Origin: an uncultured Syntrophomonadaceae bacterium
GTDB taxonomy: Bacteria > Bacillota > Dethiobacteria > DTU022
Assembly: GCA_964627855.1 (NCBI GenBank)
Contig: CAZVLE010000047.1
Location: forward strand, 29,929 to 93,928
Length of the DNA stretch: 64,000 bases
Reading direction: 5' to 3'
Shown here: in pieces, positions 7,676-39,430 of the stretch
How positions within the stretch are numbered: position 1 is the stretch's first letter
How the letters are laid out: every line of letters starts with the position of its first letter
The notes under the pieces: model-generated
Database searches by the model: none
Told to the model about the DNA's origin: nothing
What the model saw: the letters and a program-made list of their open reading frames with translations, nothing else
Made by a program: the position numbers and the translations under genes

Positions 7676-7713
7676 TATGATTGCCGTAAGATTATTTTAA
7701 TTCTAAGATCTTG

Positions 7714-7850
7714 TAACTGCTCCGCTATAGTTTAAGTGTACGGCTTTTCCAAGGTGCCCGGGCTTCCCATACACTTAAGCTGATCCTACGAATTTATAGG
7801 CAGCGCGGATAACTTGGAAGGGTTAATCATTATTGTCATATTTGGGCTGT
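7714..7850. repeat. Interspersed intergenic repeat, copy 1 (left arm, core, right arm)
   Basis: It lies between the convergent hflX and lexA stops. Left arm TAACTGCT..GTTTAAGTGTACGG..TTCCAAG and right arm CTTGGAAGGGTTAATCATTATTGTCATAT align with 28573-28725. The core 7754-7812 matches copy 2 only as a reverse complement. Confidence 0.6.
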
Positions 7851-8458
7851 CAGACTTTACGAAAGAGGCCTACGACCTTTCCCAGGATCTGAACCTCCCT
7901 GACAAAGATTGTTTCATAGGCATCATTTTCGGGCTGCAGGCGGACTTGATCGTCGTCGTGAAAAAATCTTTTAATGGTTGCTTCATCTTCAATTAAGGCA
8001 GCGGCAATATCACCGTTATCGACAATATTTTGTTGTCGGACTATAACATAATCGCCATCAAAGATACCGGCGCCACTCATACTGCTACCGCTAACTTTTA
8101 ACACAAAACAGTCTTCCCCTGTATGAAGATTTTTAGGTATGGGAAAGTAACCGTCCCTGTTTTCTTCAGCAAGAACAGGCGTACCGGCAGTAATTTTTCC
8201 AACCAGGGGGGCAAAAGCACATTTCATTTCCCGATTGCCTTCAGTGCTTCTGATAATTTTTATAGCTCTTGGTTTGGTGGGCATTCTATCTATGTAGCCC
8301 TTCCTTTGCAGGGTATCGAGATAAGCATGCACAGTAGCGGTAGAGTTAATGCCCAGGGCTTTTCCGATTTCACGTACAGAGGGAGGATAATTGCAGCGAG
8401 CCACTTCTTCTTCAATGAACATGAGGACTCTTTTTTGCTTTGCAGTCAGGGGTTCCAA
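7850..8458 (-). CDS. lexA: LexA repressor (S24 peptidase)
   Basis: The winged-helix N-terminus LTAKQKRVLMFIEEE, catalytic Ser (VSGSSM) and Lys (ATIKRF) are present. I place the start at in-frame TTG 8458, 4 nt after AAAGAGGTGA, giving about 202 aa. The upstream 35 codons of the tracked ORF overlap the predicted promoter. Confidence 0.9.
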   Translation of the reverse strand: MEPLTAKQKRVLMFIEEEVARCNYPPSVREIGKALGINSTATVHAYLDTLQRKGYIDRMPTKPRAIKIIRSTEGNREMKCAFAPLVGKITAGTPVLAEENRDGYFPIPKNLHTGEDCFVLKVSGSSMSGAGIFDGDYVIVRQQNIVDNGDIAAALIEDEATIKRFFHDDDQVRLQPENDAYETIFVREVQILGKVVGLFRKV

Positions 8459-24435: not shown

Positions 24436-25980
24436 CTAATTCCCATCAAGCCTGACCAGTTTATTGAGGCCGTTCAGGTAAGCTTTTACGCTGGCCTCGA
24501 TAATATCGGTGCTGGTTCCACGACCGGTGATGGTGCGATCCTGGTATGAAAGCTGAACCTGAACTTCCCCAAGGGCATCCCGTCCCTGGGTTACAGCGTT
24601 GATGCGATATTTTTCCAGGCCGATACTGAGTCCTGTTATTTTATTGATAGCATTATAGGCGGCGTCAATAGGGCCGGAACCGACGGCAACTTCTTCGATG
24701 GTGCTGTCATCTTCCTTCCTGAGTCGGATGATCGCGGCAGGAATGCTCTTGCTGCCGCTGACTGTCTGCAAATAATCAAGCCTGTATTTCGGTTCGGTAA
24801 AGGAGAGGTGATCGAGAACCAGGGCCTCGAGATCTTCCGGGTAGACTTCTTTTTTCTTGTCGGCAAGGTTGACAAAATGTTCATAAATCTTGTTAAGCTG
24901 TTCGCTGTCCAGGTTAAAACCGAGCTTTTTGAGCTGATCGAGAACAGCATGGCGACCTGAACGGGCAGTAAGACACATTTGCGCTGCTTTTCCGCCTATC
25001 AATTCGGCATCAATTATTTCATAGGTTTGCTTATTCTTTAGAATCCCATCCTGGTGTATACCGGATGAATGGGCAAAAGCGTTCAGACCGACAACAGCCT
25101 TATTGACAGGGATGGCTATGCGCGTCAGCTTGCTGACGAGGCGGCTGGTTCTGTAAATTTCAGGAAAATTAAGGTCGGTATAAAAGGGAAGGGAGTTCTG
25201 CCTGATTCGCAGGGCTACCGCTATTTCTTCCAGGGCGGCGTTACCGGCCCGTTCACCGATCCCGTTGATATTACATTCTATTTGTCTGGCCCCATTTTTT
25301 ACAGCTTCCAGTGAATTAGCAACGGCCAGCCCAAGATCATTATGGCAATGAACACTGATAATGACCTTTTCAATGCCTTTGACATTTTCTCGCAGGCGCC
25401 TGATCATTGCTCCGAATTCCTCCGGAATGGCATAACCCACAGTATCGGGAATGTTTAGAACGGTAGCACCTGCTTTGATCACTTCTTCGAGTAGCTTATA
25501 TAGATACTCTTCCCTGGCCCTTGTTGCATCTTCCGGCGAGTATTCAACGTCATCTGTAAAACGACGGGCATATTTAACAGCTTCCACACCCTGTTCCATT
25601 AATTGTTGCGGATCTTTTTTTAACTTATGGGTCATGTGAATATCAGAAGCGCCGAGGAAGACATGAAGCCTGGGCCTCTCTGCCTCCTTAATTGCCTCCC
25701 AGGCAGCATCTATATCGCCCTGGACAGCCCTTGCCAGGGCACATATAGTAGGACCCTTAACTTGCCTGGCAATGGCCTGTACAGCTTTTAATTCGCCTGG
25801 AGATGAGACTGGAAAACCGGCTTCAATAATATCGACATTTAAGCGAGCCAGCTGACGGGCTACCTCCAGTTTTTCCTCGTAATTCAAACGTGCCCCCGGA
25901 GTTTGCTCACCGTCACGCAGAGTACTGTCAAAAAGGTAAATTTTCTCCGCTGTATTTTCAGATCTTTTTTCTTCGCTCAT
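24436..25980 (-). CDS. leuA: 2-isopropylmalate synthase
   Basis: 514 aa with STLRDGEQTPG, HCHNDLGLA and a C-terminal LeuA regulatory/dimerisation domain. A Leu-type T-box leader lies upstream. Confidence 0.9.
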   Translation of the reverse strand: MSEEKRSENTAEKIYLFDSTLRDGEQTPGARLNYEEKLEVARQLARLNVDIIEAGFPVSSPGELKAVQAIARQVKGPTICALARAVQGDIDAAWEAIKEAERPRLHVFLGASDIHMTHKLKKDPQQLMEQGVEAVKYARRFTDDVEYSPEDATRAREEYLYKLLEEVIKAGATVLNIPDTVGYAIPEEFGAMIRRLRENVKGIEKVIISVHCHNDLGLAVANSLEAVKNGARQIECNINGIGERAGNAALEEIAVALRIRQNSLPFYTDLNFPEIYRTSRLVSKLTRIAIPVNKAVVGLNAFAHSSGIHQDGILKNKQTYEIIDAELIGGKAAQMCLTARSGRHAVLDQLKKLGFNLDSEQLNKIYEHFVNLADKKKEVYPEDLEALVLDHLSFTEPKYRLDYLQTVSGSKSIPAAIIRLRKEDDSTIEEVAVGSGPIDAAYNAINKITGLSIGLEKYRINAVTQGRDALGEVQVQLSYQDRTITGRGTSTDIIEASVKAYLNGLNKLVRLDGN

Positions 25981-26030: not shown

Positions 26031-26272
26031 AAAAAACCTTCGCCGGAGAGACGAAAGTTTATTTTCGTGGTACCACTCTTCTTGGCGGCATAACTTCTAC
26101 CACCCACTCTTTATAGTAACGGAAGCTTCCGGCCGGATCTACTCTTGACCATCAGGTGCAGGCCAGTTTCAATCGACGGTTCACGGGGGAGTTCACGGCT
26201 TTTCCGGACCGCCTCACACCAGCCGGCGGCTCTCTGGGTCGGATTCTGGGCCACTACTAGTCCCGATCATAA
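26031..26272 (-). promoter_or_regulatory. T-box leader (putative Leu specifier CUC) with terminator
   Basis: Read on the minus strand: AG bulge AGAGAG, distal loop CTGGTGTGAGG, specifier region GAA-CUC, T-box sequence GAGTGGTACCACG, then hairpin ACTTTCGTC/GGCGAAGGT plus T7 just upstream of the leuA RBS. Confidence 0.7.
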
Positions 26273-26487
26273 CCTTGTAGTATAGGGTTTTCTTAAAATG
26301 TTTACGAACTTAGATGATAGATTACAATATCAAAGTAATTTTGTCAAGCAAGTGGAAGCCTTTTTAGTGATTAGATTATTGCTATGGTCCTTGACAAAAA
26401 GAGATTGCTCATTCAGAATATAAATATAATTCCGTTTTTCTTGTTTCATGCCAGAAAAATGTCATTAAAGATCAGATATGCTTCCAA

Positions 26488-27393
26488 GTGGTGGCTGACA
26501 TGAATTCTGAAACCGGCAAAAAAACTTATTTAAACAATTCTGAGCAGCTAGCCCTCTTGCGGCAACCAAATCCGAAGGCTCCTACGGGTTTGCGAAACCT
26601 TTGCCTGATAACCCTGATGCTAAAAACCGGGCTGCGGGTGGGAGAGGTGATCAATTTAAGGGAAAAATCGATTGATTGGGTCAACGGTAAGATAACGGTG
26701 GGAGAGAGCGGTACAGCCGGTTCGCGCATGCTTTGGGTCGGCGATTCTGAACTGCGGCTCTTAGAACAATGGCGCCTCATCAAACCGCATTACAGTCAGT
26801 ATTTTTTTTCAACTCTCGATGGCAACCGGATTAAAGATCGTTATGTCAGGGAAATGGTAAAGAGATTGGCTCGCAAGGCCGGTCTTGGCAATAATATCCA
26901 TCCCAACTTGCTGCGCTCCACTTTTGCCATTGAATTTTATCGTGAATACGGTGATCTCAAACTATTGCAAAAATCACTCGGTCACAGCGATCTTTCAACA
27001 ACCAGGGCTTATGCTAAACAGGTGTTCGGCAAACATTTTGATCAGCACCCGCGAGATAATTATTCCAGGCGTAGTGGAGCTCCCTGCCTGGATAGCGATT
27101 ACTCAGGTAAGGGATTAGAATATGATAATAGAACATGCCTAGAGAAGGAAACAAGGCCCACCGGCATAACTTACAATCAGGTAGAGGCTAATAACGAAAG
27201 CAATGGAAAATCTGGCAGCCATGATGAACCGGTGATATCAGTTTTCGCAGAGCAGGGGATGGATAAAAGCGAAGTCAGCATACCGGCCTTAAAATGCAGT
27301 CAGTGCAGTTATGTCCTTCGCTACAGGGGAGATTGTCCAAGGTGCGGAACCTCTTTTATTGATATTCTAAGGCACTGGGGTCGCAATGTCTGA
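26488..27393 (+). CDS. Tyrosine recombinase catalytic domain fused to a C-terminal zinc-ribbon tail
   Basis: Catalytic residues are present: R (TGLRVGE), HxxR (HPNLLRSTFA) and H..Y (LGHSDLSTTRAYA). No N-terminal SAM-like core-binding domain is visible. The C-terminus carries CSQCSYVLRYRGDCPRCG. The start is GTG 26488 or ATG 26500. Confidence 0.75.
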   Translation: MVADMNSETGKKTYLNNSEQLALLRQPNPKAPTGLRNLCLITLMLKTGLRVGEVINLREKSIDWVNGKITVGESGTAGSRMLWVGDSELRLLEQWRLIKPHYSQYFFSTLDGNRIKDRYVREMVKRLARKAGLGNNIHPNLLRSTFAIEFYREYGDLKLLQKSLGHSDLSTTRAYAKQVFGKHFDQHPRDNYSRRSGAPCLDSDYSGKGLEYDNRTCLEKETRPTGITYNQVEANNESNGKSGSHDEPVISVFAEQGMDKSEVSIPALKCSQCSYVLRYRGDCPRCGTSFIDILRHWGRNV

Positions 27394-27655
27394 GAGAGAA
27401 GGGCCGGGATAGGTATAATTAGAGGGTCATAGAAAGCCAGATATTACTTCCGATAATGTATCTTATGTAAACTAAATAGGATCACAATAATCAGGATTGC
27501 CTGCACCAGAAGCTTTTAAGGCAAGCGCTGGCTGTTTCTCTGTTATTTTGTTTTTCATTGAGCCCTTTTTAGGTAGCCTTTCTATTGTTATAATATATGA
27601 AGTAATAAAAGTTTGATCAATTTCATGACGATTATTTTACGGAGGTTTTCTTTTT

Positions 27656-28543
27656 TTGAACAGAATCATTGCTGCTGCTTTGCTTTTCATTTTTATCTTT
27701 TTGCTCTTTATTTTACTTTCCTGCTCTGATCATGACCTCAACCAGGCTGTGGATAACCAGGCTGTGGATCAAACCGAAGAAACACTTGGGCCTCCTCAGG
27801 AAAAAAGTGTCCAGGTCGAGCTGGATGAAACCATTCATCTACCAATAATTGGTATTTATTCAGGTGAAGGAAGCTGGCCGGAGAATGTTACTGCTTTTAA
27901 GAACTTCCTGGCCGAATACAATTTCCAATGGCAGGAGTTTAACAGTGACAGTATAAACTCAGATCACTTCTACGAGGAAGTTGATATGATTATATTCCCT
28001 GGTGGTTTTGCTGCAGAATATCGTCATGCCCTTAAAAATCATCAAAAAATACGCTCATTCGTTGAAAATGGCGGTTCATATGTTGGTATTTGTGCCGGCG
28101 CTTATTATGCCGCCACTATTTTTAATTGGCAGGGCACTGCCTATGAATATCCATTGAGTATTTTCCCCGGCACTGCCGCCGGACCATTAAATGGCGAACT
28201 TAACTGGGGCGATGCGGCAGCATTAATCATTAACAGTGATGCTGTTCCCAATCAAGGATTCCCTGATCAGATCGATGTCTATTATTTCGACGGACCATAT
28301 TTTACTGTGAATCCCGACAATGAAGAGTCTGTCGATATAATAGCCCGTTACGACTTAAATGATGAAGCTGCCGTTGTGGCAGGTTCATTCGGTACGGGGC
28401 GTTATTTGCTCCTGGGGCCACACCCGGAATTAGGCCGCTTTGACCCTGAAGCGCCCGGCTCAAACACCGACGGCGAAGATGGTGCACAGTGGCCATGGTT
28501 ATACTCCCTCCTGCTCTGGCTTCATGGCTCAACCCGGGGTTAG
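27656..28543 (+). CDS. Exported lipoprotein with a class-I glutamine-amidotransferase-like (BPL_N-type) fold
   Basis: A signal peptide with lipobox LLSCS, then IGIYSGEGSW...IIFPGGFA...GGSYVGICAGAYYA (a nucleophile-elbow-like Cys). The start is TTG after ACGGAGG. Confidence 0.5.
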   Translation: MNRIIAAALLFIFIFLLFILLSCSDHDLNQAVDNQAVDQTEETLGPPQEKSVQVELDETIHLPIIGIYSGEGSWPENVTAFKNFLAEYNFQWQEFNSDSINSDHFYEEVDMIIFPGGFAAEYRHALKNHQKIRSFVENGGSYVGICAGAYYAATIFNWQGTAYEYPLSIFPGTAAGPLNGELNWGDAAALIINSDAVPNQGFPDQIDVYYFDGPYFTVNPDNEESVDIIARYDLNDEAAVVAGSFGTGRYLLLGPHPELGRFDPEAPGSNTDGEDGAQWPWLYSLLLWLHGSTRG

Positions 28544-28572
28544 AATCAGGATGTGCTATAATGATTAAAGCT

Positions 28573-28725
28573 TAACTGCTTAGCTATAAGTTTAAGTGTA
28601 TGGTTGTTCCAAGTCGCTCGCGATGCCCATAAATTAGTAGAGTAGGAGCAGCTTAAGTGTATGGGCAGCGCTGGCACCTTGGAACGGGCAATCATCATTG
28701 TCATATTCCAGGCTGAGTAGTTACT
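28573..28725. repeat. Interspersed intergenic repeat, copy 2 (core inverted relative to copy 1)
   Basis: The arms align collinearly with 7714-7850. The core 28614-28677 matches the reverse complement of 7754-7812. It is bounded by GTTCCAAG (28606-28613) and CTTGGAAC (28678-28685). Confidence 0.6.
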
Positions 28726-28760
28726 TAAAGCAATCTTTTAGATAAGGATGGTGGTTCGTT

Positions 28761-30101
28761 CTGCGCCGTTTATTAGTTATCCTAATTGCCTTTCTCTTAA
28801 TTGTTGCCCTTGCCTTAGCCGTTCTTCAGGCTACTAATATAATGCCTCTTTTCAATTTGAACAGGGACTTAAGTGAAACGGTCCTTACCGTTGAAGATAA
28901 CACGCAAACCAGTGAAGAGTTTGTTGAAGCTACTGAACCCGAACCTGAACCCGAACCTGATCTGCGCACCATCAGGATGGCAGTTGTCGGCGACATAACA
29001 GCTCATGTGCCCCAGATTGATCAGGCTTTACTACCGGATGGTAGTTATGATTTCCGGCCCAGCTTTGAAATAATTGCTCCCTACCTGCAGGCAGCTGATC
29101 TGGCCGTGGGAGACCTCGAAACCTGCCAGGCCGGTCCGGACCTTCGTTCCATAGGCTGGGGTGTTACCGGTTACACCGGTTACCCGGAATTTAATGCTCC
29201 CGATGAATTCTCGGAAGCTTTAAAAGAAGCCGGTTTCGATGCCCTGACTTTTGCCAATAATCATACCCTGGATCGCGGTTACGACGGTGTTATCAGGACC
29301 CTGACCCACGTGCGCAGCCTTGGCCTTGAAACCTTTGGTGCTTATAAGAGCTGGGAAGAACGTAACAACCCCTTAATCATCGATGTTGACGGCCTAAAAA
29401 TTGCTTTTCTGGGCTATACCTATGGCACTAATGGTATTCCGGTTTTAGAAGGACATGAATATAGCGTTAACCTCATTACTGATTTCTACGATATTACACC
29501 GATTCTCGATGACATTCAGACAGCCCGTGCTAATGGTGCTGACCTGGTTGCAGTCTTCCCTCACTGGGGTGAAATGTACTTTTCTGAGCCGCAGCCGCAG
29601 CGCCTGCGTGATGTTGCCGCTGAAATGGCTGCTGCCGGAGCCGATCTCATCATGGGCGGTCATCCCCACTATATCCAACCCATCGAATGGTTCTTTAATC
29701 TAGATGAAGACGGCACCGAGAGATCTACACTGGCTGTTTACTCTCTCGGTAATTTTATTTCCAACCAGAACCGCCGTTTTGATCATATCCCTTCACCTTT
29801 TGTTGAATTCGGCCTGATGCTTGAAATTGAAATGATCAAAGATATGGATAACCAGAAGGCCTGGATCAGTGACGCCGACTATGAAATAACCTGGGTCAAC
29901 CTTGACTGGCGTCACCGCATTATTCCTCTGTCCGAACTTTTTGCCGGGTCTCCCGACGACTATCACGTTACTGAAGCCCAGGCAGAAGATCTTAAGATGT
30001 GGGATCAACGCAATCGAGAAGTTGTGGAATTTTACGGCCACACGCAGGATCTTGAAAAAGTAAGAACTATCTCGGAAGCGATGCAAAAGAATCTTAAATA
30101 A
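28761..30101 (+). CDS. CapA/PGA_cap-family metallophosphoesterase-like envelope protein
   Basis: ANNHTLDRGYDG, PHWGEMY, GGHPHYIQP and SLGNFISNQ are present. A signal-anchor (RRLLVILIAFLLIVALALAVL) is encoded in frame upstream of ATG 28842 with no ATG/GTG/TTG. CTG 28761 lies 6 nt after GGATGGTGG and is the proposed start; ATG 28842 is the conservative start. Confidence 0.75.
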   Translation: MRRLLVILIAFLLIVALALAVLQATNIMPLFNLNRDLSETVLTVEDNTQTSEEFVEATEPEPEPEPDLRTIRMAVVGDITAHVPQIDQALLPDGSYDFRPSFEIIAPYLQAADLAVGDLETCQAGPDLRSIGWGVTGYTGYPEFNAPDEFSEALKEAGFDALTFANNHTLDRGYDGVIRTLTHVRSLGLETFGAYKSWEERNNPLIIDVDGLKIAFLGYTYGTNGIPVLEGHEYSVNLITDFYDITPILDDIQTARANGADLVAVFPHWGEMYFSEPQPQRLRDVAAEMAAAGADLIMGGHPHYIQPIEWFFNLDEDGTERSTLAVYSLGNFISNQNRRFDHIPSPFVEFGLMLEIEMIKDMDNQKAWISDADYEITWVNLDWRHRIIPLSELFAGSPDDYHVTEAQAEDLKMWDQRNREVVEFYGHTQDLEKVRTISEAMQKNLK

Positions 30102-39383: not shown

Positions 39384-39430
39384 ACGGGCAATCATGATTA
39401 TCATATTCCAGGCTAAGCAGTTACTCTAAA
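39384..39430. repeat. Partial copy (right arm only) of the interspersed repeat
   Basis: ACGGGCAATCATGATTATCATATTCCAGGCTAAGCAGTTACTCTAAA aligns with 28683-28729 (ACGGGCAATCATCATTGTCATATTCCAGGCTGAGTAGTTACTTAAA). Confidence 0.5.

Follow-up and report, generated by a model that had tools for sequence, protein, structure and literature searches.

The window, a stretch of 64,000 nt (C47:29929-93928) from the MAG of an uncultured Syntrophomonadaceae bacterium (2.45 Mb in 156 contigs, 85% complete), carries two copies and one truncated remnant of a short dispersed repeat. Copy 1 has a degenerate right end that overlaps the stop codon of lexA. Copy 2 lies 1.2 kb downstream of a gene for a tyrosine recombinase, in which only the Phage_integrase catalytic domain was found. 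The region 26488-30101 (compared with loci L028-L031) is made up of this truncated recombinase with a zinc-ribbon tail, kept beside BPL_N-like and PGA_cap genes. Just downstream of the copy 2 insertion, the signal-anchor frame of the PGA_cap gene at 28746-28871 (GWWFVLRRLLVILIAFLLIVALALAVLQATNI, continuous with the ATG at 28842) is without ATG, GTG or TTG, and the ATG at 28748, the counterpart of the start codon in relatives, opens another frame that stops after 29 codons; this apparent +1 shift is present in all assemblies. The coordinates of these features, together with those of a T-box leader located in the same region, are collected in Table 1.

Table 1. Positions of the repeat copies, their parts and neighbouring features in the window
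Feature	Position	Strand	Remark
MITE copy 1, about 148 bp	7713..7860	+	canonical loop
Copy 1 left hairpin arm	7747..7771	+	
Copy 1 hairpin loop	7772..7794	+	CACTTAAGCTGATCCTACGAATT, canonical orientation
Copy 1 right hairpin arm	7795..7819	+	
2-isopropylmalate synthase-like gene	24436..25980		
T-box leader	26044..26279	-	Rfam, 125.5 bits; upstream of the 2-isopropylmalate synthase-like gene
Tyrosine recombinase gene	26488..27393		Phage_integrase catalytic domain only
Copy 2 left target-site duplication	28565..28571	.	TTAAAGC, same 7 nt at both ends
MITE copy 2, 153 bp	28572..28724	+	flipped hairpin loop; end-to-end match to family model
Copy 2 left terminal inverted repeat	28572..28584		TTAACTGCTTAGC
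Copy 2 left hairpin arm	28607..28631	+	TTCCAAG...CCCATA; pairs with 28660-28684, 20/25 Watson-Crick
Copy 2 hairpin loop, 28 nt	28632..28659	+	AATTAGTAGAGTAGGAGCAGCTTAAGTG; reverse-complement match to family loop
Copy 2 right hairpin arm	28660..28684	+	TATGGG...CTTGGAA
Copy 2 right terminal inverted repeat	28712..28724		GCTGAGTAGTTAC
Copy 2 right target-site duplication	28725..28731	.	TTAAAGC, same 7 nt at both ends
Truncated MITE remnant	39384..39424	+	right-hand module and terminal repeat only

Searches of the MAG itself with BLAST and an nhmmer profile located 50 loci of the repeat family. Alignment of its members gave a consensus full-length element of 147 bp, which reads, in order, GTAACTGCTCAGC TATAGTTTAAGTGTACGGCTG TTCCAAGGTGCCCGGGCTGCCCATA CACTTAAGCTGCTCCTACGAATT TATGGGCAGCGCGGATACCTTGGAA GGGGCAATCATTATTGTCATATTCCAG GCTGAGCAGTTAC. 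Full copies end in 13-bp terminal inverted repeats (GTAACTGCTCAGC / GCTGAGCAGTTAC), perfect in the consensus, and most of them are surrounded by A/T-rich direct repeats of 7-8 bp, such as AAATGAAG/AAATGAAG, AAATATTT/AAATATTT, TATAGATC/TATAGGTC and AAACTTTG/AAACTTTA. Two of these target duplications are perfect 8-mers and several others have one mismatch; 8 bp is the typical length, against 7 nt at copy 2. Elements range in size from 147 to 281 bp, are non-coding and are too short for a transposase gene. Five copies represent a long form of about 280 bp with an extra, structured insert of about 135 bp at its centre. The short copies, the intermediates (C140, C53, C62 and C66) and the stubs of 53-111 bp are all collinear deletion derivatives of this 280-bp form, and the junctions of these derivatives sit at short direct repeats.

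No Rfam family matched the element at gathering or permissive thresholds. The repeat was not found in 40 genomes from the host's taxonomic family and order, nor by exact-word scans of GTDB representatives and JGI metagenome contigs. Copies 1 and 2 are thus members of a new, lineage-specific, non-coding MITE family which, as far as these genome and contig searches reach, is confined to one uncultured Syntrophomonadaceae lineage. An autonomous partner with the same ends was sought as a pair of ends 1-3 kb apart, and none was seen in the 85%-complete MAG, where insertion sequences assemble poorly; the additional terminal-repeat matches elsewhere in the MAG are solo remnants. We also considered whether the inverted right halves of the element at C118:20-97 and C118:1852-1932 could be the ends of an insertion sequence. 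This candidate was rejected, as the 1.75 kb between them encodes a 502-aa protein that is not a transposase and that we take, reading the translation by eye, to be a PLP-dependent decarboxylase.

The centre of the element is an imperfect inverted repeat of 25 bp (TTCCAAGGTGCCCGGGCTGCCCATA / TATGGGCAGCGCGGATACCTTGGAA), whose outermost and best-conserved 7 bp are the heptamers TTCCAAG and CTTGGAA. It encloses a loop of 23 nt in the family and 28 nt in copy 2. Folded as single-stranded DNA, the consensus is predicted to form a terminal stem and an inner hairpin (-35.5 kcal/mol, z -6.6), and the same architecture is predicted for copy 2 (-25.1 kcal/mol, z -4.0). Compensatory evolution of the hairpin arms was examined and discarded, and we claim no selection: complementarity within copies (20.8/25) is not above that between copies (20.5/25, p = 0.12). 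The same comparison gave no significant signal of family-wide arm homogenisation, and paired arm changes were seen in the individual copies C46, C141 and C61:8684.

Comparison of the loops revealed that the reverse complement of the copy 2 loop matches the family loop at 22 of 23 positions, with one 5-nt insertion, a match far beyond chance. As written, the copy 2 loop does not align to the family loop at all. The loop of the predicted inner hairpin coincides exactly with the inverted tract. CAC, the first triplet of the canonical loop, has travelled with it and now stands as GTG beside the right arm of copy 2. The 5-nt insertion and substitutions in the left arm are private to copy 2 and occur in no other copy. 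The arms behave differently from the loop. Compared with the family consensus, the copy 2 arms score 42/50 in the collinear orientation and 42/50 when flipped; being nearly complementary to each other, they fit either orientation equally well. Since the arms carry no orientation signal, only the loop is provably inverted, and the breakpoints may fall anywhere within the 25-bp arms. Demonstrably, the sole inverted tract of copy 2 is therefore its 28-nt loop.

These results refine the description given in the first-pass annotation. Its observation that copies 1 and 2 are collinear in their outer arms is borne out (7729-7771 versus 28589-28631, at 79%, with the right-hand modules aligning too), as is its reading of the copy 2 centre as the reverse complement of copy 1 (7747-7789 versus 28642-28684, 43 nt, 91% complementary). 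The heptamers TTCCAAG (7747-7753 and 28607-28613) and CTTGGAA (7813-7819 and 28678-28684) are indeed present in both copies. The breakpoints, which had been put inside these heptamers, cannot be placed there: the heptamers are simply the ends of the 25-bp arms, for which the two orientations tie at 42/50. An inversion has indeed taken place, but it spans less sequence and is of a more ordinary kind than first proposed.

To compare loop orientation across the family, a locus was counted as informative if one or both of its arm-loop junctions were preserved beside an outer module. Across the nhmmer loci, 38 of the 39 informative loci were canonical and a single one, copy 2, was flipped. The flip and flop configurations proposed earlier consequently stand as a difference between copies, one in 39; as two states of one locus they found no support. 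A partial copy at C109:11166-11232 deserves mention here. Its right arm, reverse-complemented, agrees with the canonical left arm plus CAC at 27 of 28 positions, and this copy might be a second flipped remnant, but the sequence beyond the arm aligns equally poorly both ways (scores 124 and 127).

The same survey bears on the idea that the family is a mosaic, in which sub-repeats come in numerous orders and orientations, copy 2 representing one of these arrangements. TTAAGTG recurs in both orientations within the element, and long, short and truncated forms exist, as a mosaic would have it. However, every variant is a collinear deletion derivative of the 280-bp form, and there is no other orientation change among the 39 informative loci. 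The shuffling of sub-repeats that had been offered as one explanation was not seen, the family varying instead through internal deletions, and we consider a mosaic origin exceedingly improbable.

Assemblies of the same population, located through exact matches of flanking proteins, allowed three loci to be compared between samples, with the reservation that an assembly reports the majority state only. Copy 2 was flipped in all four of the other assemblies that span its loop, namely L038 (Logan), L039 and L044 (JGI), and L040; one SNP was found among L038, L039 and L044. Copy 1 was canonical and base-identical in 6/6 JGI assemblies. A third copy, near parA on contig C147, showed the same arrangement in eight assemblies, being identical in seven and differing by a few SNPs in one, which probably represents a divergent strain. 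Each examined locus thus had a single orientation, as majority state, in every independent assembly spanning it. Neither a canonical-loop allele nor an empty-site allele was found at the copy 2 locus in the assemblies located, and an exact-word metagenome scan for this locus in either orientation gave no match. Because no such allele was recovered, the event cannot be polarised at this locus and the footprint of a template switch cannot be read there.

These assemblies also address the possibility that the flipped loop is an artefact of assembly at a palindromic repeat. The MAG is fragmented into 156 contigs, and words of up to about 24 nt are common to the flipped right junction and the reverse-complemented canonical left junction, which could in principle mislead an assembler. 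Yet the same flipped structure, including its private substitutions, was recovered in independent JGI and Logan assemblies of other samples, leaving an artefact with next to no probability.

In one of these assemblies (L040:1754-2000, JGI 3300001533), copy 2 carries a deletion of 51 bp (TGTATGGG...CATATTC) that corresponds to window positions 28658-28708 and by which it loses the right arm of the hairpin together with some of the right module. The start of the deletion is 2 nt away from the site at which an IS110-family element, described below, is inserted.

The proximity of a Phage_integrase-family gene to a segment bounded by inverted repeats had raised the possibility of phase variation, that is, programmed inversion of the 60-bp core by the tyrosine recombinase encoded upstream or by another invertase acting on TTCCAAG/CTTGGAA. 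Analysis of the gene neighbourhood revealed that the recombinase gene is syntenic with BPL_N-like and PGA_cap genes in four other Syntrophomonadaceae MAGs (40-43% identity), which belong to different genera and none of which carries the MITE. This conservation beside the same genes suggests that the recombinase is a resident host gene, as it looks to be, rather than the integrase of a mobile element; for the copy 2 locus, to which this comparison applies, it also tells against a dedicated invertase. A consensus scan of 28400-28900 found no sigma-70-like promoter and no terminator-like site, and the element is without an internal promoter-like site. If the heptamers, which most copies have, served as recombinase sites, mixed orientations would be expected across copies, yet 38 of the 39 informative loci, most of them with the heptamers or near variants, share one orientation. 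For a tyrosine recombinase, moreover, a segment of this size would be very short for synapsis. The prevalence of one orientation, its fixity at each locus, the lack of a promoter and the independence of the recombinase from the element together argue against programmed inversion, and the site-specific inversion by the adjacent recombinase that had been suggested is, in our judgement, scarcely credible.

A further mobile element was encountered at the edge of the copy 2 loop. In three JGI assemblies (L041-L043; L041:1-122), copy 2 continues to the left of GTGTATGGG not with its own sequence but with a repeated one, in which the contigs end. This sequence is also present at the starts of contigs C104 (C104:1-1677) and C147 (C147:63-181), and it proved to be the 3' end of an IS110-family element of about 1.7 kb, with an N-terminal DEDD_Tnp_IS110 domain (PF01548, 6.8e-18, profile positions 27-152 only) and a C-terminal Transposase_20 domain (PF02371, 5.1e-22). 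In the three metagenomes the insertion point in flipped copy 2 is GCAGCTTAA^GTGTATGGG, exactly at the loop edge, where the intact allele runs from GCAGCTTAA straight into GTGTATGGG. The flanks of a second insertion site, downstream of parB, are ...CAGCTTAA and GTGGCTC..., and both insertions share CAGCTTAA^GTG. The reverse complement of this motif, CAC^TTAAGCTG, is the start of the loop, its first 8 nt, in every canonical copy of the MITE. The 3' non-coding region of the element contains CACTTAAGT within a hairpin, with a word of 8-9 nt matching the target; the hairpin could be a bridge or seek-RNA guide. Neither the left junction nor an empty site of the insertion was found, the contigs located by exact protein matches ending inside the insertion sequence. 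As a separate observation, the genome has just two copies of the 14-nt palindrome GTTTCACGTGAAAC: the one at C104:1573-1586 lies within the IS110-family element, about 100 nt from its left end, and the one at C147:202-215 lies beyond its right end, at a distance of 21 nt.

Bridge RNAs are used by IS110-family elements, whose recombinases can catalyse inversion (PMC11208160), and insertion into palindromic repeats has been described for some members of the family (bioRxiv 10.1101/2025.01.17.633520). Since the right end of the element abuts GTGTATGGG of copy 2 in three metagenomes, one may ask whether a bridge-RNA element of this type, targeting CAGCTTAA^GTG, caused the inversion by inserting there and then undergoing aberrant recombination or excision. 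CAC/GTG has, however, moved with the loop, which puts the breakpoints of the inversion outside the insertion point, within the arms. The insertion point is therefore not a breakpoint, and we do not link the element to the inversion. Furthermore, there is no second target-like site at the other edge of the loop, and the insertion coincides with the boundary for no other reason than that every loop begins with the 8 nt of the target motif. We regard an IS110-family origin of the inversion as exceptionally unlikely.

Taken together, the results make it likely that copy 2 represents a single, fixed inversion of the hairpin loop mediated by the inverted repeats, a mutational scar on a decaying MITE and not a regulated flip-flop. 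Single-stranded MITE DNA would fold into the terminal stem and the inner 25-bp imperfect hairpin with its 23-nt loop. The loop of copy 2, with an unresolvable part of the arms, would have been inverted once, probably when replication switched template from one arm to its complement and then returned; alternatively, the two arms may have undergone an intramolecular exchange, which would give the same product. The inverted state would since have become fixed at the copy 2 locus. Template switching between the arms of an inverted repeat inverts the spacer and homogenises the arms (PMC8604942), loop inversions in bacterial rRNA hairpins have been attributed to inter-strand switching (PMC8794818), and a general template-switch model is available (PMC5453318). 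The signature that defines such an event is found here: the copy 2 loop is the reverse complement of the family spacer between the 25-bp arms, with the 5-nt insertion in addition. Among the three mechanisms put forward in the first-pass annotation, the best fit is recombination across the short inverted repeats or template switching, which is its equivalent during replication. The deletion series of the family, with its hairpin-associated and short-repeat-associated deletions, and the 51-bp deletion in L040 show that the hairpin structures of the MITE are error-prone.

A related route is ectopic gene conversion or a double crossover, in which the core of copy 2 would have been replaced from an oppositely oriented MITE through the near-palindromic 25-bp arms. 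About 40 copies are present in both chromosomal orientations. Since the arms are inverted repeats, both sides of the loop find collinear homology in a copy of opposite orientation. However, the arms provide only about 25 bp of imperfect homology, and no donor is identifiable on account of the private 5-nt insertion and left-arm substitutions, which could be later changes. The product would be indistinguishable from that of an inversion in place, and with no ancestral allele, template switch, arm exchange and conversion from an opposite copy are inseparable. We consider conversion unlikely. Less likely still, and very improbable, is that the loop of the MITE hairpin flips reversibly at low frequency, as loops of plastid hairpins do, with its minority orientations masked in consensus assemblies, and possibly with help from the IS110-family recombinase, whose target motif (CAC^TTAAGCTG) makes up the loop edge in every copy. 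If this were true, the roughly 40 hairpins spread over the genome would generate a population heterogeneity that escapes notice and would serve the bridge-RNA element as natural landing pads.

The inversion of the copy 2 loop is in itself of little importance. It agrees with what is known of inverted repeats during replication and provides, in a bacterial repeat, a clean natural case of the inversion of a comparatively long hairpin loop (23-28 nt). What is new is the MITE family and one fixed hairpin-loop inversion, both of known kinds. The case also calls for caution in the prediction of invertons from sequence only: hairpin repeats dispersed through a genome can look like invertible switches where a recombinase gene is close by. 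The IS110-family insertion at the edge of the MITE loop may be the more useful lead, towards the natural targets of bridge or seek RNAs.

Correia, ERIC, RUP and Nezha-type elements are examples of bacterial MITEs. Like these, the present family is small and non-coding, with terminal inverted repeats and target-site duplications, and it has many intergenic copies, a strong hairpin potential, and long and short forms that differ by internal segments. Unlike known bacterial MITEs, a group reviewed in PMC3184786, it is unrelated to any Rfam entry and was not found in 40 relatives; as to the partner elements that enter such a comparison, none with the same ends was seen in the 85%-complete MAG.

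Invertons are phase-variable invertible promoters, exemplified by fimS and by the invertons of Bacteroides (10.1101/2023.03.11.532203; PMC11602134). Copy 2 resembles them in that inverted repeats enclose one of its segments and a gene for a tyrosine recombinase is close by. It differs in that no locus showed two states in the assemblies, which report the majority state, in having no internal promoter, and in that its neighbouring recombinase is conserved in relatives that are devoid of the element. Moreover, the sites are present in most of the roughly 40 copies that keep their arms, yet only one copy is flipped.

Closer parallels come from hairpins in non-coding DNA. In plastids, non-coding stem-loops flanked by short inverted repeats carry loops in either orientation, and these hairpin inversions are recurrent and homoplasious between close taxa. 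Small hairpin-associated inversions in plastid non-coding DNA were reportedly described by Kelchner and Wendel in 1996 and by Kim and Lee in 2005. The MITE likewise has a stem-loop in non-coding DNA, with flanking inverted repeats and a loop found in either orientation among copies; unlike the plastid inversions, it shows one fixed event among 39 copies and no variation between samples. Set beside the surveys of template-switch mutations, copy 2 has a longer spacer (23-28 nt versus the 2-8 nt documented there) and imperfect arms, and we infer the assignment without an ancestral allele of the same locus. What copy 2 has in common with these mutations (PMC8604942; PMC8794818; PMC5453318) is a spacer reverse-complemented in place between arms that are kept, in a rare and discrete event.
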